This document shows, in pieces, positions 4,039-44,121 of a stretch of 64,000 bases of DNA (positions within the stretch are counted from its first letter, which is position 1; the number at the start of each line of letters is the position of its first letter). Where the stretch lies: positions 39,928,001 through 39,992,000 of the forward strand of contig OX597817.1 in NCBI GenBank assembly GCA_951406725.2, read 5' to 3'. Made by a program: the position numbers and the translations under genes. The notes beneath the pieces are model-generated. The model saw only the letters and a program-made list of their open reading frames with translations, had not been told where the DNA came from and ran no database searches. The DNA is from Octopus vulgaris. Lineage: Eukaryota.

Positions 4039-4200
4039 GATCATCTGAATAACAGCCTGCAACAATGGAACACTCACCAAGAACAGCTGAGAACATTTGA
4101 TGCCTACCTTTCAGAAACTCTTCCTCAATGGAAAGCAACAATGGATTCTCGTCCTGTAGATAACTTGACCGATGCAAAAGAACAGTTGACAGAAACCAAA
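4039..4200 (+). CDS. Spectrin-repeat gene, internal exon B (54 aa, DHLNNSLQQWNTHQEQLRTFDAYLSETLPQW...QLTETK)
   Basis: ttaaAG acceptor, AAA|GTAAGT donor, 162 nt, phase 0/0, no stops. The 'L..W..(Y/H)...L..F..(W/Y)L' pattern marks a spectrin helix A. Not in the ORF track on this strand. Confidence 0.88.
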
Positions 4201-5844: not shown

Positions 5845-6015
5845 GACATGTGGAATAAACTTTCTACCATGAAGCAGGATTTGAATACCAGCCTTAGTCT
5901 GTGCAGAGTGGCTGAAACAACCAAAGAAGATGAAATTTCAGAAGCCATTGCCAATTCACCATTGCAGAAGTTCTCCCAGAAAGTCAATCATAATCTTGTT
6001 TCAGAGATGAATGAG
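5845..6015 (+). CDS. Spectrin-repeat gene, internal exon C (57 aa, DMWNKLSTMKQDLNTSL...LVSEMNE)
   Basis: tttacAG acceptor, GAG|GTATGT donor, 171 nt, phase 0/0, in frame with exons B and D. Confidence 0.85.
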
Positions 6016-6630: not shown

Positions 6631-6807
6631 GTTGAGAACCGTCTAGATTCTGTACGTGATGTAATCCAGTCATGGGAGGCTGTTGATACACTGAAGAATG
6701 ACCTGAGAGCCATAGTTCGACAGAAGAAGGAAGAACTAAAAGAACTGGAAGAACAACCATCCAAACTTCATGAAGAGGCTGCTGGAATTGAGATTACCAA
6801 ACTTCAA
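6631..6807 (+). CDS. Spectrin-repeat gene, internal exon D (59 aa, VENRLDSVRDVIQSWEAVDTLKNDL...EITKLQ)
   Basis: tttctttcAG acceptor, CAA|GTAAAT donor, 177 nt, phase 0/0. Conserved Trp at the repeat boundary. Confidence 0.88.
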
Positions 6808-14485: not shown

Positions 14486-14788
14486 ATTCTCAAGAGTGAA
14501 GTTGAAGAGAAATCGAAATCCCTTGATGATTTGAAGCATCTCTATGGGCGGCTCACTGAGCATAACTCACAACTAAGTGACCCGATTATTCAAGCAATCC
14601 AAGAAGACTGGGAAGAAATTTTGAGCCACATTGGAAATGTCTTAGAAGCTAAAGAATGTGAGAAACATGACCGGAAAACTTTCCTCGAACATCAGATGGA
14701 AATTGATAGAGACTTGGCTAATTATGCTCAAGAATTAGAAAGGATTGAATTGGAAGAAACTCCAAAGGCTGTTGAAGATAAAATTACA
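14486..14788 (+). CDS. Spectrin-repeat gene, internal exon E (101 aa, ILKSEVEEKSKSLDDL...IQEDWEEILSHI...VEDKIT)
   Basis: aaacAG acceptor, ACA|GTAAGT donor, 303 nt, phase 0/0. Helix-C motif 'I...W..L'. Forms the coding core of ORF 14114..14911. Confidence 0.9.
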
Positions 14789-20432: not shown

Positions 20433-20998
20433 TTGGGTTGTCTGGAAAGTTCATGCCGAATTTTAAAGGAAAGAAAAATGTCAATAAATACTTGCCATTA
20501 CATTTTTAATCAACCAAATATGAACCATTTTGTTGCACAATGCGTCTCCATCTTTTCTTTAACTTGAAAATACCGTCTTCCCAGAATTGAGTGGGTTTCA
20601 TGGCAAAGAATTCATCAAGGTATCTTTTTACGTCGTCCAAGGAATTGAAATTTTTACCATTAAGACTATTCTGCAGAGATCTGAATAAGTGGAAATCCGA
20701 AGGAGCAATATCTGGTGAATATGGAGGGTAGGGTAACATATCCCAGCTGAGCTGCAGCAATTTTTGTCTGGTTCCCAAAGCATCAAGTGCCGAAAATGAC
20801 CTTTCTTATCTTCCATTTTAAAGGGTTACAAAATTAACACGGGTTATAGGAACATAAACCTTCTTCCACGGAAAGATAGCTTAAACTGTGCTCTAAATGG
20901 AGTTGCAGTCAAATCTTATTTAATGGACTCAACCATGTTCTAAAATAAGTCGAAAGGTAAGCTACTATAAATCGGCACAAACTTTCCGGACAACCCAA
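20433..20998 (-). mobile_element. Internally deleted mariner (DD34D) element, mellifera-subfamily-like
   Basis: TA on both sides. TIRs ttgggttgtctggaaagttcatgccga / ttgggttgtccggaaagtttgtgccga (24/27 identical). Transposase N-terminus MEDKKGHFRHLML is joined directly to the C-terminus ...LPYPPYSPDIAPSDFHLFRSLQNSLNGKNF... Confidence 0.93.
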
Positions 20999-21667: not shown

Positions 21668-21810
21668 TACGATGGGATTCTTTCAGTTTCTGTCTATACC
21701 AAATCCACTCACAAAGCTTTAGTAGAAGACACTTGCCCAAGGTGCCATGCAGTGAGAATGAGCCTGGAACCATGTGGTTGGTAAGCAAGCATCTTACCAC
21801 ACAGCCACTC
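21390..21810 (-). mobile_element. SINE family A copy just downstream of exon F
   Basis: Reverse complement of the 10661-11085 element. Confidence 0.85.
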
Positions 21811-24074: not shown

Positions 24075-24910
24075 TTATCAAATAAAATAAACCTTTTCTA
24101 TAATGTTATTCAATAAAGCCACCTTCAGCTTCAACAAATGCTTCTATATGACATCTAAATCATCTACATTCTCAAATCAAGTGGTCTGGGTTAATTTTGG
24201 ACATTACTCTGACTGTGGAAGCTTTCAAAGAACCTTTGGTGTAATGGGCATGTTCATTGGCTTCTCTCTCAACAACACTCCACATGGATTGAAATCTGTG
24301 GAATTAGAAGGCCAAATGTTAGGGGTTATGTGATCATGAAAATTTTCAGCCATCCATTCCTGTGTTACTAGAAGCATGTGTGATAGTGCAGAGTCTTACT
24401 GAAACACATATGGCCTTCCATTGAATACACTGTCTATTCAAGGCTTAACAATTATTTCCAGAACCTCAGTGTAGGCAGCAGGATTAACTCTAAGGCCTTG
24501 GGAAAAGAAGTAAGGAAGCATCACATGTCCTTCATTGCTGATAACCCCTAAAACTATGACAGTTGCAGGAAATTTTATATACATGACACTTGAAACTTCT
24601 GATGGGTCTGCACATAACCATCTGTCATTTCTTCTGTTAACTTTTTGATCTTGGTCAAAGTTTTTCTCATTTTAGAAAAACCAAATCAAATTTCCTGCTG
24701 GATTTTTCAGTTTATTTAAGAGCATTTTAGATCTGATGTAGTGTTTTCTTTTGCTTTTTCTGACAAATTGACCTTTCCTCATCAAATAAGTCTTATATCT
24801 GATGTCTTTGTGGATAAAATTTCTGACTATTCCTTCTGACACATGGAGATAATTTGCAATTGACCTCATAGACATTCTAGGATTGTAATCAATGGTCTGT
24901 TGAACTTACT
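24075..24910 (-). mobile_element. Degenerate Tc1/mariner-superfamily transposase remnant (DD37D/maT-like)
   Basis: Minus-strand translation with frameshifts and stops: SMRSIANYLHVSEGIV (HTH), WFF..DEKNFDQDQKVNRRNDRW, VLGVISNEGHVM, FQ*DSA..H, NFHDHITPNIWPSNS. Confidence 0.85.
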
Positions 24911-36579: not shown

Positions 36580-37260
36580 AAAGCTACTAGAGTCACAGCA
36601 AGACAGGGAAACCAAAGCACCAAATGAACTTAAAAACTGGAAAAAAGAACAGAAATTATCTGACTGGCAGAAGAAAGCGTTGCATGGTAGATTCCCAAAG
36701 ACAGTTTCAGCAAATAGTAGTAGTGAGACATGGTTATGGCTGCAGAAAGGAAAAGCTGAAGAAGGAGACAGAAAGTTTGTCAGTAGCTGCCAAACATTAA
36801 GGACTGATTGGATAAAAGCCAAGTAGATTCCCATGAAGAGGGAGACAGAAAGTTTGTTAGGAGCTGCATAAGATCAAGCATTAAGGACTAATAGGATAAA
36901 AGCCAAAATAGAAAAAACCAAGTAGATTCCCAATGTAGATTATGAAAATCAAAAGAAGAAAGCATTCCTCATATAGTAAGTGAATGTAGCATGCTGGCAT
37001 AGAAAGAATACAAGAAAAGACATGACAATCTAGGGAAAGCAATTCACTGGGAAAGCTAGGGTTTGAACATACTGATAAATGGTTAGAGCATGAATCTAGT
37101 GAAGTACGGAAAATAAGAAGTACAAGATGTTGTGGAACTTTAAATATTCAGACTGACAGAGTAATAGAAGCTAGAAGGCCTGATTTGGTAGTAGTAAATA
37201 AAGAGAACAGAAAGTGCCTGATAATTGACTTTATATTTACAAATGATAGGTCAAGAGAAT
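36580..37260 (+). mobile_element. R4/Dong-like RLE LINE remnant (zinc knuckle + restriction-like endonuclease)
   Basis: WQKKALHGRF, WLWLQKG, DQALRT, CRL*KSKEESIPHIVSEC (CCHC), RHDNL, LWNFNIQTDRVIEARRPDLVVVNKENRKCLIIDF. Internal duplication at about 36760-36935. Upstream flank is TAA-rich. Confidence 0.9.
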
Positions 37261-38173
37261 TAGTGTTAGTTGATTGTGGGGAACATGGTGTTTTTGACAG
37301 ATATGATATCCTGACAGCTTGTAACTGATGCCAATTGTGTATTCTATGTTTCAGCAACAAAAATCACCTATTAAAATGAAAGCTTTATAATACATTAATT
37401 TTATGATCAATGGTCTAGAACCATAATCTAAATCATTGTATTTTAGCAACAATTAATGTAGTTAATTCTTTTGTGAAATGTTTGGAACCATTGAGTTAAT
37501 AGTTTTACATTCAGTTTCTGCTACATTGCTCCAGTGATTGCTTTTATTTTCACCAAACTCTTCAGTCTTTCACTCTCTACAGGAATATGGTTCTACTTTT
37601 CAAAACACATAACAGTGTGCTCTTCCTGAATAACATTGGGAATGGTTTTAAATAACTGCCATCTTCAATGTTCCTTCCTCACTAGTTATTTCTTCTGGAG
37701 ATTTATTCTGCTGTGTCACACACACATTGTTGGTTTTTTTAACTTCCATAGCTTAAGTGAAAGCAGTGTTGTTACCCTTCATATCATCAAAACATTTGGC
37801 CATATTTAACTTGAGAACTCTCTAGCTTTGAGCTTCATCTGTCTCTCATCTCTTGTAAAGGTTATAGGCATTGATTGCTCTTTCCTCTAGACCAGATCAT
37901 TAAAAAACAAATGCCAAATAAATATTGCATCTATATTGGCAATAAAAGCAGAACTTCTTTAAACTCTGTGAAGAAATTACCTGTTATCATTGTGAGACAT
38001 TGTGCACTTTGTAGTCTGCTAGATCTCTGGCCTTTCCCATTATAATGACACTCTTAGATCTGTTGCCATGAGACTCTACTAACAACCAGGAAAGTTATGG
38101 TAAAATGGTTACTGCAGGACCTGTAGGGCTGATAAAAGAAACAAGTATATTCATTGGGTGGTATAAAGTTTGT

Positions 38174-38401: not shown

Positions 38402-39841
38402 TATAAAGTTTGTAACTCCTCAATAGCAGATACCCTTGTTATAATAGTAGACAAAATAAGTGTAGATTATTTGTGAATTCTAGCTGAACTGTGCAAGTTA
38501 ACAAATTTGGTCCCTAAATGGATATTTTTATTTATTTTTTCAAAGCATAGAATATTGTGCTAATAAGAGAATTTGAGCTATTGTCTCTTTGCCCAATCTT
38601 CTAGCAATTTATTGAGTTGGTAACTACTATAAACTAGATATAATATTTTAATTATTGATCAATGAAGTGCAATTCTTGTGAAAAGTAGATAGAACACAGG
38701 AATACAGTTCCTATCAATTTTGATGAAATATAATTGGGAACAAGGGACAGAGGGAATGGCTGTTGCCTTCATCAAGAAGCTCTATTGGGAAAATGGTAAT
38801 TAAAATAGCACACGAAAACAAACAAAAAAAATTGTGAACGTGATTTAAAATTAGACAGAAAATTAATGTCATGGTAAAATGTTGGAATATAAACAACCGA
38901 TAGACAAACACATACACACAGATATATATGTGTATTTGTATATATATGTATACATATGTATGTATATAGATATAGATATAGATATCATTATCATCATTTA
39001 ATATCTGTCTTCTATGCTAACATAGCTTAGATGATTTGGTAGAATTCACTGTCAGAGGACTGCATTGTGCCCCAGTACATAACTATTAGAGTTGAAGATG
39101 ATAATGGTTGTAATGGTTTTGTTCATGATAATGATGATGATTCTAGTGATTATGTTGTTTTTCAATATTCTTCACTCCTACTTTTGATAATAATGCTAAT
39201 TTTGATAATAATGACAATTGTAACGATGCTTGTGATGAGGTGATGGTGGGGTTTGTGGTGCAGCAGCTACCTTAACGCACTTTTGTTCAACAGTTCTTTC
39301 ACTGTTGAAAATGGGGGTTGTTGGGGTTGAGCAGGAAGATAATATTTGGTGATGATGATAATAGTGGCAATGATGATGATGATGATGACAATGATGATGT
39401 AAAGAAAATAATGATAAATAAGATGTTGGTAGAAGTGAAAGCAGGAATAAAATTTGTATAATTTTCTAATTTTTAGTAGAGGTGCTAAATGTTGTCTGAC
39501 TCCAATTATATATTTAATCTAATAATTCTCTTTAAACAACAGATTTCAAATTTTTTTTCAGCCAAAACAAAAACTAACCTTCATGATAAGACTGATAGTT
39601 AAAATGACATTTTTTTTTTATTTCTATGTTCACACTGTAAAAATCTTTAAACTATATTCACCAAATGTATTTTAAATCTTCATAATTATGTGATGCAGTC
39701 TAAAACCTGAGTTAGTGTTATTGTTATGAAATAGTCACAGCTGAGTTGATATCAGTAGATTCATGTTCTGTCCTGTATATAGAGTAAGTAAAATTCAGAG
39801 TCCAATGGTTATTACTTCATCACTCTATCTACCCTCCACAG

Positions 39842-41695
39842 CCAACCAAGCGGTGTGACTCCACTCAAACTTCAGAACCATCTGCCCGCTATCCTGGTAG
39901 AAGGGCTCGGCTCACCTCTGACTCAGAAGACGATTCTGATACTGATCCATTTGCATCAAAATTTCCCTCTGCGAATGGTGCTTCCTTCACTGATTACCAG
40001 CAAAGACCATCTTCATCAAGAGATAGTGAACACTCAAAACGGAGGTATGGTTTAGATACATTCAGCCCACATTCATCATTAAAGTGTAGAAATGTGCTGC
40101 TTGAATCCGAAAGTGAAGAGTCTGGGTATGGGGAAACAAACACCATGCAAGCATCTAGTTTTGATGTTACTCTAGATAATGATGCTGATTTTGATGGTTT
40201 TCATTCCACCAGAACTTTGTACAGTAGCCATTCTGAAGACAGTATCTCATTTATGAGTAATCATATCAATGAATCTACTGATGGCTGGATGAGGAGTACC
40301 AGCTCTCAGACTCATTGCAATGCTAGAACACAGACTCCAAAAAATTTCGGAATGAATGAATCTTTTGCTCACTCTTTTAGTTCTTTAAACAGAAGTCTAC
40401 CCATTAACGATGGCCAAACCCAGACAAGACTGTTACGTAGCAGAGCAATGCAAACCTCTAGTACTTCCTTACATTCTATTTCGGCACAAACAAAATCTCT
40501 GAGTGGCTCAAAAAGCGATATGTTAAGAAACATACTGTTTGAAGTAAAAAGCCTAAAAACAGACAAAGGAATCGACCAAAACTCAACAATATCTGACAGT
40601 GTTTATTCTCCTTCTTCAACTCTAAATGGTACCATGCTTAAGGAAATCCTGAAAGATGTCCGTGTTATTAAGCAATCAGATTTTACTTGTGATGCAAGTA
40701 CCCAAACATATACTGACCAAGGAACTCAAACTTCTTTTAGTGAGGATAACTCTGTCAATTTCGTTAGACATGAAAAACTTAAAGATATTCTGAATGATGT
40801 GAAACTTGTATCAAATAACAGTCTTTTATCACCAGAATCGAAACAGAATGATGAAGTTTCATCTCCTCATCTGATTCAATTGAATACCGCTGCACAGCAT
40901 CCTGGCAACTCATCGCAGACTTCTGAAGCAGATGGTAATCAAAGTAATGCAAATTTTGTCTCACCACAGTATAGAAATAACACTAATTTTGTGCCACCTA
41001 AACCAATGTATTTGATTCCTCAAAGACCACAAACGCCTTTCAATTCTGTAACACAAAATTCAAGGCCAGTATTTTCAAGAAAGAAGGTTACTCAACAAGA
41101 TTTAAACAATATCAGTCAACGTATTGAAAGACTGCGCAGCTACCAACTTCCTGAGCCACATTTACGAAGATTCCATTCTAATCAGCAGCAGCAGAATGGT
41201 ACCACTTTGGGATTTTCAAACATGCACCGTCCAACAGCATCCATTAATAGAAATGTTGCTTCTGAACTAATGACTGATTCTGGCTTTTCAAATAATTTAC
41301 CACAATTCATTTCCCGAAATTCCACTCAGTCTCAGAACCTAATACCACCTACAAATCCACCACCTTATATCTCAAATCCTTATGTTTCCTCTGCTAATTC
41401 CTCCGCTCACCAGTTCCTACCAAACCAAAGCGAACAGGTTTCATATACACCACATGGCTTTCCTCAAAGACAATCCAGAAGGTCATTCAGGCATTCATAT
41501 GATGATTTAGACCTTGCAGCTCGTCACCCAAGACATCAGCATGAATTTTCTTCTCGAAGACGTGATCAACGATCTCTTGTAATGGACAGGTACCACCTTG
41601 ATGAGGCTATTGAGAAAGTGACTAGAAAATCTCGGCAACTTAAAAAAATTGCTGAAAAAATGAAACAAACACTTAAAGAAGAAATCCTGAAGTAA
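39842..41695 (+). CDS. Large terminal exon (617 aa + stop): Ser/Thr/Asn/Gln-rich disordered tail with a TQT-motif array, repeated short helices, PPPY and a C-terminal coiled coil; probable alternative last exon of the spectrin-repeat gene
   Basis: Pyrimidine tract + ccacAG acceptor ending at 39841. The frame is open from 39842 (PTKRCDSTQTSEPS...) into the 533-aa ORF 40094..41695, phase 0 like the upstream exons. TAA at 41693-41695. No transposon motifs, no transmembrane segment, no KASH peptide. Confidence 0.85.
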   Translation, partial: PTKRCDSTQTSEPSARYPGRRARLTSDSEDDSDTDPFASKFPSANGASFTDYQQRPSSSRDSEHSKRRYGLDTFSPHSSLKCRNVLLESESEESGYGETNTMQASSFDVTLDNDADFDGFHSTRTLYSSHSEDSISFMSNHINESTDGWMRSTSSQTHCNARTQTPKNFGMNESFAHSFSSLNRSLPINDGQTQTRLLRSRAMQTSSTSLHSISAQTKSLSGSKSDMLRNILFEVKSLKTDKGIDQNSTISDSVYSPSSTLNGTMLKEILKDVRVIKQSDFTCDASTQTYTDQGTQTSFSEDNSVNFVRHEKLKDILNDVKLVSNNSLLSPESKQNDEVSSPHLIQLNTAAQHPGNSSQTSEADGNQSNANFVSPQYRNNTNFVPPKPMYLIPQRPQTPFNSVTQNSRPVFSRKKVTQQDLNNISQRIERLRSYQLPEPHLRRFHSNQQQQNGTTLGFSNMHRPTASINRNVASELMTDSGFSNNLPQFISRNSTQSQNLIPPTNPPPYISNPYVSSANSSAHQFLPNQSEQVSYTPHGFPQRQSRRSFRHSYDDLDLAARHPRHQHEFSSRRRDQRSLVMDRYHLDEAIEKVTRKSRQLKKIAEKMKQTLKEEILK

Positions 41696-41724
41696 AATTA
41701 TATTATGATATTACATTATACCAT

Positions 41725-41730
41725 AATAAA
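41725..41730 (+). terminator. Candidate polyadenylation signal AATAAA
   Basis: Canonical hexamer 30 nt after the stop of the terminal exon. The AT-rich background makes a chance match possible. Confidence 0.35.
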
Positions 41731-41986
41731 ATATTATAGCATAATAACTAATAGAACACTACATTGTAATGTTAGAGCATAAAATATAATGTAGCAATTA
41801 AAACAAACACTTGACAAGAAAATGTAATCAGTATAAAAGAACTTTATATTGCTTCAACTTCAAGAACAGTATTCTTTCAGTAACAAAAATTAGTTTCAGT
41901 TTAAACATTGATACATTTGGAAATTTATCTGCACCTTTTCACACCTGTTCAAATCGATTTCTTTTGCATCCTAATTTTTTTTAAAC

Positions 41987-42129: not shown

Positions 42130-44121
42130 TAAGTTGACATCCTGCTAAAGTCAGCTTTGCCTTTCATGCCTTCAGGGTTGATAGAATATACACCGGTCAT
42201 ATATTGTGGTTAATCTCATCATCTATATTCTCCTGCAAAATAAGTGCAAAATCAGTTCAAATTCCGCCAAGGTCAACTTTGCCTTTCATCCTTTTGGGGT
42301 TGATAAATATAGTACCAGTTGTGTACTGGGGTCAATCTAATTGACTGGCCCCCTTCCCCCCAAATTTCAGGCCTTATGCCTATAGTAGAAAAGATTATTA
42401 TGATAACGTTGATGTTCATCCTTTCAGGGTCAATATAATATATACTAGTTATATACTGTGATTGATTTAATCAGTTTTGTCCTCTCCATATGTTTGTTAG
42501 CCTTGATACCATGTAAGAAATTATTGATAAATAATTGTCATTAATAATCGTTAATAATAATAATAATAATCCTTTCTGTTAAATGCATGAGACCTGAAAT
42601 TTCACTGGGAGGAGACAGCTAATTACATTGACCCCAGTGCTTAACTACTACTTTTTTCATCCACTTTGAAAGGGTACAAGACAAAATCAACTTCAGTGGG
42701 ATTTTGACTCAGAACATAAAGACCAGTGAAAAGGTGCCAAGCATTTTGTTTGGTACAGTAATGATTCTGCCAGCTTGCCTTATTAACAACAACAACAACA
42801 ACAACAGTAATAACAATAATAATTCCAGTAGTTCTAAGTGTATTGAGAACTATCCCTAAAGATCTGAACAGATGGATAGAGGAAATGGGCATAAAACCCT
42901 ATTTTTTAGAGCTTCAGAAAACAGTGTTATTAGGGACAGCTAGGATACTTAGGAGGGTTCTTGGCATCTAAGGTTATTTGCTATAACCCAATAGAAAGGT
43001 CCTTGACATCTAAGACAACTTCTTGTAGTCTGATGTTAGGATTCTTTTCTTTTCCAACAGCTTAATCTGTTGAGTGTATATGAATAAAATAAAAATAATA
43101 ATAATAATAATAATAATGGTTTCAAAATTTGGCGCAAAGCCAGCAAGTTTGGGGGAGGGGATAAGTCGATTACATTGACCTCAGTACTCAACTGGCACTT
43201 ATATTATTGACCCCAAAAGGATGAAAGGCAAAGTGGATATTGGCAGAATTTGAACTCACAATGCAGAGATGGACGAAATGCTGCTTAGCATTTTGTCCAG
43301 TATACTTAACAATTGTGCCAGCTTGCCACCTCAATAATCTTTTCTACTATAGGTACAAAGCCTGAAGTTTGTTGGTGGGGGATAGTTGATTACATAAACC
43401 TCAGTGCTCCACTGGTACTTATTCTATTGACCCCGAGCGGATGAAAGGCAGGGTCGACTTTGGTGGAAATTAAACTCAGAATGTAAGGACAGATGAAATG
43501 CCACAAATATTTTGCCTGGTGTGCTAATGGTTCTGTCAGTTTGCTACCTCAATAATAATAATAATAATAATAATAATAATCTTTTCTGCACAAGGCCTGA
43601 AATTTTGGGGGAGGGGGCTAGTTGATTAGATCGATCCCAGTGCACAACTGGTACTTAATTTATAGACCCCCAAAAGGATGAAAGGCAAAGTCAACCTCGG
43701 CGGAATTTGAACTCAGTATGTAAAGACAGACAAAATTCCGCTAAGCATTTTGGCCGGTGTGCTAACATTTATTATTTCTGCCAGCTCACCTCCTTATAAT
43801 AATAATAATAATGATAATGATAAATAACAACAACAATTCTGCCAGTTAACCATTGCATATTTTGACACAAGGCCAGCAATGTTAATGGGGAAGAGGCAAG
43901 TCAGTTACATCAACCCCAGTACTTGACTGGTACTTCATTGTATGAATCCCAAAAAGCTCAAAGGCAAAGTTGACCTCGGCAGAATTTGAACTCAGAAAGT
44001 AAAAAGTTGGAAGAAATACTGCAAAGTATTTTTTCCAACTTGCTAAAGATTCTGCAAACTTCCTGCCTTGATGATAATGATGGTGATAATAATCATAATA
44101 ATAATAATAATTATTATTATA

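Follow-up and report, generated by a model that had tools for sequence, protein, structure and literature searches.

The nesprin-1/Msp300 gene of Octopus vulgaris has two alternative ends, one of which is a large terminal exon that encodes a disordered tail in place of the KASH anchor. This exon lies in a stretch of 64,000 nucleotides (GenBank assembly GCA_951406725.2, contig OX597817.1, positions 39,928,001 to 39,992,000 of the forward strand), here called the window, whose own numbering is used throughout unless another contig is named. Our preferred reading, to which we assign a probability of about 0.65, is that this is an alternative mollusc nesprin-1/Msp300 end whose conserved QT motifs would make it a multivalent client of the dynein light chain LC8, pairing two KASH-less rods. 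An earlier note on this DNA had proposed an LC8-zippered tail of this kind.

The O. bimaculoides homologue cluster includes XP_052822891.1 (P0013), a model of 6850 amino acids annotated as 'muscle-specific protein 300 kDa isoform X10'. In a tblastn comparison with the window and the 200 kb upstream of it, P0013 gives 56 matches, in order on the + strand, from residue 2515 to the end of the tail (rows above 70% identity were kept and weaker ones filtered out). The mapping covers residues 2515 onward, residues 1-2514 with the predicted calponin-homology (CH) domains lying further upstream. There are 55 ordered matches to the rod, and five rod exons fall inside the window, the last of them separated from the tail exon by a 25-kb intron:

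2169-2345, + strand: rod (spectrin-repeat) exon of nesprin-1/Msp300, 97% identical to P0013 5902-5961, with CAG/GT borders.
4039-4200, + strand: rod exon, 93% identical to P0013 5960-6015, with AG/GT borders.
5845-6015, + strand: rod exon, 97% identical to P0013 6015-6073, with CAG/GT borders.
6631-6807, + strand: rod exon, matching P0013 up to 6132, with CAG/GT borders.
14486-14788, + strand: last shared rod exon, 99% identical to P0013 6131-6232; its phase-0 donor GTAAGT is the branch point between the tail and KASH routes.
39842-41695, + strand: alternative terminal exon, 617 codons and a stop, encoding the disordered tail without a transmembrane segment.
41725-41730, + strand: candidate poly(A) signal AATAAA, 30 bases past the stop, its use being putative.

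Scanned alone, the rod exons of the window gave no Pfam spectrin match; PF00435 and PF25034 are found on the homologues P0062 (Lymnaea) and P0063 (Aplysia), which have a long spectrin-repeat rod. The ordered matches to the Msp300 model and these Pfam matches bear out the earlier note in placing a spectrin-repeat rod and a nesprin-like gene upstream. The Lymnaea protein (CAL1544282.1, 6706 amino acids) carries the same tail after the same junction, and Pfam recognizes CH (PF00307) and spectrin domains in it. The gene belongs to the nesprin-1/Msp300 family, and its tail isoform, expected to have about 6850 amino acids with two CH domains, rod and tail, is not a component of the LINC complex. A protein search for tail-bearing proteins of 1081-3085 amino acids returned none, the full-length forms being longer.

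The open frame around the tail exon runs over 635 codons at 39788-41695 on the + strand, and the acceptor at 39842, set by a pyrimidine tract and AG, leaves an exon of 617 codons. The start given by the earlier note is therefore right, but its end at 40930 is not, as coding continues to 41695 and the flagged range is the first 363 codons. A genome search finds the exon in single copy, and tblastn aligns it at 94% identity with P0013 residues 6233-6850. The tail is rich in Ser (16%), Thr (8%) and Gln (7%). It holds neither a transmembrane nor a KASH segment, in agreement with the earlier note's picture of a tail in place of a KASH anchor: Pfam finds no family above cut-off in it or in its oyster homologue, and hydropathy over 19 residues peaks at 0.24, where the KASH end of Aplysia reaches 2.8.

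An in-frame splice links the donor at 14788 to 39842. Four of the 24 listed sequencing runs were compared over 39450-41960; none of the runs containing the tail exon is labelled as RNA, and 14 of 20 are guessed to be RNA. In run X5, which by its differences comes from a related species and whose RNA status is a guess, a contig begins at 39842 with a loose end of 30 bases identical to 14759-14788. Because these 30 bases come from 25 kb away, the overhang cannot derive from genomic DNA. The spliced contig joins the exon to the rod exon ending at 14788, and with the acceptor in place the terminal exon is real, as the earlier note had it. The other three runs (X1, X18 and X4) cover the interior of the exon and stop short of the junction; an X1 contig of depth 3 lacks 25 bases at 40723-40747, a frameshift that is likely an assembly error. 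Among distant homologues on unrelated metagenome contigs, two of three have a pyrimidine tract and a phase-0 CAG before the first motif, and the O. bimaculoides and Lymnaea models both end in the tail.

The alternative end lies further along the same strand. A KASH domain (PF10541, 90.8 bits), the only one matched in the genome among the 150 of 275 candidates that were scored, is found 295 kb downstream of the tail stop, and the octopus reading there ends in PPPT and a stop. The Aplysia protein P0063, which corresponds exactly to the C-terminal 5761 residues of XP_005093427.3 ('nesprin-1'), follows the rod to the junction and continues to KASH without the tail, no part of which is contained in either of the Aplysia KASH models P0063 and P0064. 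Downstream of the octopus tail, 29 of its 30 matches are collinear and end at the KASH match. A second in-frame phase-0 acceptor about 35 kb beyond the tail (C4:40003200) gives a weak but correctly placed match to the Aplysia post-junction exon (E 0.035). Since collinear rod exons lead to the downstream KASH, the tail exon is an alternative end within an intron of about 60 kb, and the rod of this one gene ends either in the tail or in KASH. A tail 'instead of' a KASH anchor thus describes the isoform and not the gene; a gene devoid of KASH is ruled out by the downstream match on the same strand and the collinear exons between. The long form is predicted to approach 11,000 amino acids, a sum of two parts that assumes a skipping junction not seen in octopus reads.

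All nine QT motifs listed in the earlier note are present in the tail, with Q at exon residues 9, 156, 164, 194, 204, 216, 288, 296 and 359, and five of them (9, 164, 194, 288 and 296) are exact TQT as described:

39851-39874, + strand: QT site 1 (Q9), RCDSTQTS, which reads RCRSTQTP in most relatives.
40292-40339, + strand: QT sites 2 and 3 (Q156, Q164), 8 residues apart.
40406-40495, + strand: QT sites 4-6 (Q194, Q204, Q216), with conserved Q.
40688-40735, + strand: QT sites 7 and 8 (Q288, Q296), 8 residues apart.
40901-40924, + strand: ninth QT motif (Q359), not conserved and likely due to chance.

Between sites 156 and 296 the steps are 8, 30, 10, 12, 72 and 8 residues. In residues 1-363, TQT occurs 5 times against 0.16 expected and QT 10 times against 1.79, each reached in 0 of 20000 shuffles. 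Over the whole 617-residue exon, the fairer test, the counts are 5 against 0.25 and 12 against 3.35, each reached in 1 of 20000. Over residues 301-6232 (5932 amino acids), the O. bimaculoides protein contains TQT only once.

Two homologue searches returned 12 and 16 homologues, those with names coming from one cephalopod, three gastropods (Lymnaea, Elysia and Candidula) and one bivalve (Crassostrea). The octopus tail was aligned with 22 of them, omitting P0001 (94% identical), the fragments P0057 and P0061, and cluster members; conservation was scored on 19 distant homologues (26-37% identity), with three close ones left aside. Q is kept at sites 156, 164, 194, 204, 216, 288 and 296 in 19, 19, 19, 9, 18, 18 and 18 of these 19, and site 9 is TQT in 10, the other 9 being gapped there. 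Site 359 has Q in none of the 19 and E in O. bimaculoides, and was rejected as a member of the array. Weighted identity is 0.69 in the anchor columns compared with 0.18 in the flanks; it is 0.74 for the motif Q versus 0.11 for the other 35 Q, and 0.75 for the T after Q versus 0.19 for other T. Rank tests of column conservation gave p values of 2e-10, 5e-5 and 1e-4, although these treat columns as independent and the effect sizes are more reliable. In all 23 aligned sequences, which have 7-12 QT each, the QT count exceeds the mean of the sequence's own shuffles. The QT motifs are therefore conserved islands at eight sites, Q359 falling outside that description. Judged from these alignments, the tail exon has been kept across three mollusc classes, with QT motifs retained in cephalopods, snails and an oyster.

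Disorder predictions agree with the earlier description of the exon. AlphaFold2, run with 29 sequences, places 451 of the 617 residues below pLDDT 50, all nine sites among them, and FoldIndex is below zero at 82% of positions and at seven of the nine sites. From its N terminus the tail comprises site 1 and an acidic block, then five sites followed by two helices, two further sites with a helix after them, and finally a variable linker, another helix, a proline-rich stretch and the C-terminal helix:

40103-40165, + strand: acidic conserved block, ESESEESGYGET..TMxASSFD, with [DE]S[GA]YG[DE]T in 23 of 23 aligned sequences.
40511-40564, + strand: amphipathic helix 1 (residues 224-241, LxxILxEVKxLK), predicted by AlphaFold2; L228, L232, V235 and K239 are invariant in 29 of 29.
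40631-40678, + strand: helix 2 (264-279), predicted by AlphaFold2, with the same LxxILxDV pattern.
40751-40813, + strand: helix 3 (304-324), predicted by AlphaFold2.
41093-41140, + strand: helix 4 (418-433), predicted by AlphaFold2; R427, L431 and Y434 are invariant in 29 of 29.
41570-41689, + strand: predicted C-terminal helix (577-616), coiled-coil-like, with pLDDT 92-95 in its last 30 residues and the highest hydrophobic moment of the tail.

The three helices within 40511-40813 share LxxILx[DE]V[KR] and could go back to an old internal repeat whose copies pair across chains. A sequence-profile search of the PDB with the tail gave one match, compositional, to beta-casein (E 0.88); Foldseek with the low-confidence tail model gave 0 matches, and neither the tail nor P0053 had a usable match in the ESM Atlas. 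Conservation within the tail is highest in the acidic stretch, which is not a QT motif; it resembles a beta-TrCP phosphodegron with flanking CK2-type sites, both labels being putative. Within it, Met102 (40145-40147), the first in-frame Met, is kept in 21 of 23 aligned sequences and is the start of an oyster stand-alone model; a short tail-only product may begin there.

By motif, disorder and conservation, the tail is likely a multivalent LC8 client, with binding predicted. The preferences of LC8 comprise a T-Q-T anchor, a large or basic residue at -3, a polar residue (often D) at -4, and P, D or E at +2 (PMC6607443). At site 156, D occupies -4 in 16 of 23 sequences and P occupies +2 in 17 of 23; at site 9, R is found at -3 in 10 of 13 and P at +2 in 9 of 13. 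As these flanks match the published preferences, we count them in favour of LC8. The octopus genome holds an intact, intron-free LC8 gene of 89 codons (L051 1489-1758, G000:C25). Two weaker matches to the dynein-light-chain family (L052 and L053) are also present, and the true partner might be a paralogue. In this reading LC8 serves as a dimeriser and not as a link to the dynein motor. Under this model, the short form would not be held in the nuclear envelope; each LC8 dimer would take one motif from each of two chains, zipping the tails side by side, and the helices between motif clusters and at the C terminus would pair once LC8 had aligned the chains. The product would be a KASH-less dimer, a two-headed actin tether joined at the tail with its actin-binding heads at the far ends. 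With one site of each 8-spaced pair filled, up to about six LC8 dimers could be accommodated.

Several observations weigh against this proposal. The splice evidence is one contig from one of four runs, with a 30-base overhang that is one base under the bridging rule, and the same run X5 has a contig (39649-39855) that crosses the acceptor unspliced, which could represent pre-mRNA, DNA or an alternative start. The homologue searches were partly scored by the QT motifs themselves, several of the homologues are close kin, the last three sites are missing from P0060, and two relatives of 45% identity no longer have TQT at site 194. A TQT anchor predicts binding weakly, as 7 of 19 matrix-predicted peptides bound LC8 (PMC6607443). 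When site strengths were judged by the verbal rules of that paper rather than by LC8Pred scores, seven of the nine octopus sites showed one or more unfavourable positions, in most cases because the -3 residue is small, and two passed without a flag; among the relatives, site 164 passes in just 3 of 23, site 216 in 2 of 22 and site 288 in 2 of 22. Small residues at -3 also occur in the published table of binders (PMC6607443), and multivalent LC8 clients commonly include weak sites.

The spacing is the more serious difficulty. A distance of 8 residues is invariant, separating sites 156 and 164 in 23 of 23 sequences and sites 288 and 296 in all 22 that have both, and octopus sites 194 and 204 are 10 apart. 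Eight extended residues span about 2.7 nm. The KANK1 rod, with 15 LC8 dimers over about 53 nm, allows about 3.5 nm per dimer (10.1101/2025.07.16.665182), and the shortest site spacing found in print, within the parts of these sources available, is 11, corresponding to a 3-residue linker (PMC10046861) and to the smallest distance, by eye, in Table S4 of PMC6607443. As 8 is below 11, either one site of each 8-spaced pair is likely to be filled or the pairs serve some other purpose. At most about six sites are then likely to be filled, and even this set includes a 10-residue step. The array of the earlier note stands with eight conserved sites rather than nine, and since both sites of an 8-spaced pair are unlikely to be filled together, it is not a regular ladder of the Nup159 kind. 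A complex prediction with four octopus LC8 chains and two copies of residues 268-312, run with no alignments, scored 0.28 and 0.17 (mark 0.34; controls not folded, and peptides and disordered chains outside the calibration), and speaks neither for nor against the model. The invariant spacing of 8 is not explained by LC8 alone, and it is mainly on this account that our confidence is held where it is.

The same spacing suggests that the alternative end could be as described while its QT motifs act with a partner other than LC8, or in a self-assembly dependent on a fixed repeat of 8 residues, with LC8 binding few or none of the sites. The invariant distance, below both the published minimum found and the length per dimer in KANK1, the small -3 residue at many sites, and a most conserved block that is not a QT motif all point this way. 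Yet a Q-T anchor is common to eight independent sites, in which positions -4, -3 and +2 carry LC8-type residues, weak sites are normal in multivalent clients, and we know of no other QT-binding hub; we regard this alternative as unlikely, if worth keeping in view. A phosphorylation cluster for ATM/ATR-type kinases would account for the retention of S/T-Q at six clustered sites (9, 156, 164, 194, 288 and 296, in 10, 14, 17, 19, 17 and 18 of 19 homologues). These kinases do not need a T after Q, however, and this T is better kept than the residue before Q (0.82 versus 0.63). Moreover, the QT of sites 204 and 216 follows M/L/I/V or A/N, and that of site 156 follows C in 5 of 23; of six S/T-Q outside the conserved QT sites, only one (418, in helix 4) persists in a majority of the homologues (13 of 19). 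Such a cluster therefore seems very unlikely. That the motifs are a mere by-product of a disordered region rich in S, T and Q is suggested by the tail's composition and by the behaviour of the ninth motif, but for eight of the nine sites chance composition is refuted by the composition-preserving shuffles and by column conservation relative to other Q and T, and we give this explanation almost no credence.

A different kind of objection is that the tail exon represents, for the most part, a short gene of its own lying inside a nesprin intron, its fusion to the rod being rare or an artefact of gene modelling. Both O. bimaculoides (A0A0L8I860) and Crassostrea (XP_022330732.1) have stand-alone models, the latter starting at the well-kept Met102, and the unspliced X5 contig fits such a gene. 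On the other hand, the spliced contig and the full-length models in one cephalopod and one gastropod tie the tail to the rod, coding conservation extends upstream of Met102, and the phase-0 CAG acceptor precedes the first motif in two of three unrelated contigs. The three-codon first exon of A0A0L8I860 (window 21772-21780, three codons and a GT donor) matches an interspersed repeat with 31 matches in 21 of 56 loci, and was rejected as repeat-derived. The linkage of tail and rod was examined in cephalopod and gastropod only, and we consider a nested gene quite unlikely.

A more far-reaching version of the LC8 proposal is offered tentatively, as one we think possible but lean against: that an ancient mollusc splice choice converts a nuclear anchor into an LC8-zippered, two-headed actin tether away from the nucleus, that the 8-spaced pairs are a new LC8 design allowing alternative registers or tighter packing, and that the SGYG block sets turnover.

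Elsewhere in the window, the 25-kb intron contains broken pieces that resemble a Tc1/mariner transposase (20509-20805 and 24441-24905, - strand); one piece has a weak Pfam match to HTH_Tnp_Tc3_2 (E 0.025), and the label is otherwise by eye. Short frames at 36581-37328 and 42765-42971 (+ strand) look by eye like decayed LINE pieces and have no Pfam match.

Nesprins without KASH have been described in flies, worms and vertebrates, and the organisation of their free ends is mostly open; the free end found in molluscs is a large conserved module. If LC8 binds it, multivalent LC8 clients would, as far as the searchable literature goes, gain their first giant spectrin-repeat protein, and the tail would offer both a mechanism for pairing KASH-less rods and a natural case for the minimum distance between LC8 sites. 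RefSeq already contains the tail isoform as a model that has drawn no remark, and pieces of it are misannotated elsewhere as uncharacterised stand-alone genes. Neurons of the Aplysia or Lymnaea type and cephalopod muscle are accessible systems for its study. KASH-less nesprin ends and multivalent LC8 clients are both known kinds, but their combination in a large, mollusc-conserved exon was not found in print: a literature search, with most subscription journals outside its reach, yielded no paper linking a nesprin to an LC8-motif array, and four LC8Pred supplements contain no SYNE1 or SYNE2 string.

Among LC8 clients, ASCIZ/ATMIN, Chica/FAM83D, Nup159 and KANK1 resemble the mollusc tail in having several TQT-type anchors of mixed predicted strength in disordered regions (PMC6607443, PMC10046861, 10.1101/2025.07.16.665182). 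No sequence homology was found between these proteins and the tail, which differs from them in having helices between its clusters, two pairs of sites 8 apart and a giant spectrin rod as the client, and in which LC8 binding is predicted. Caenorhabditis elegans UNC-83 is a KASH protein that associates with an LC8 homologue, DLC-1; it keeps its KASH domain and recruits dynein through a BICD-1/EGAL-1/DLC-1 complex, with no motif array described in the available part of the report (PMC2953438). Drosophila Msp300-PE and the CH-bearing, KASH-less Msp300 forms are products of the orthologous gene with isoform-specific exons and a non-KASH end (PMC11230431). Msp300-PE, found in Drosophila only, has no CH domains, two spectrin repeats, 100-residue tandem repeats and a transmembrane end, and the accessible text of that paper does not mention LC8 (PMC11230431). 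By contrast, the mollusc form has CH domains, a rod of about 5900 residues and no transmembrane segment. Vertebrate KASH-less isoforms of nesprin-1 and nesprin-2 share with it the use of alternative 3' ends that cut the rod before KASH and free the protein from the envelope, but there a retained intron contributes only a few residues (8 in one example; PMC3388047), whereas the mollusc end is a dedicated, spliced exon of 617 codons.
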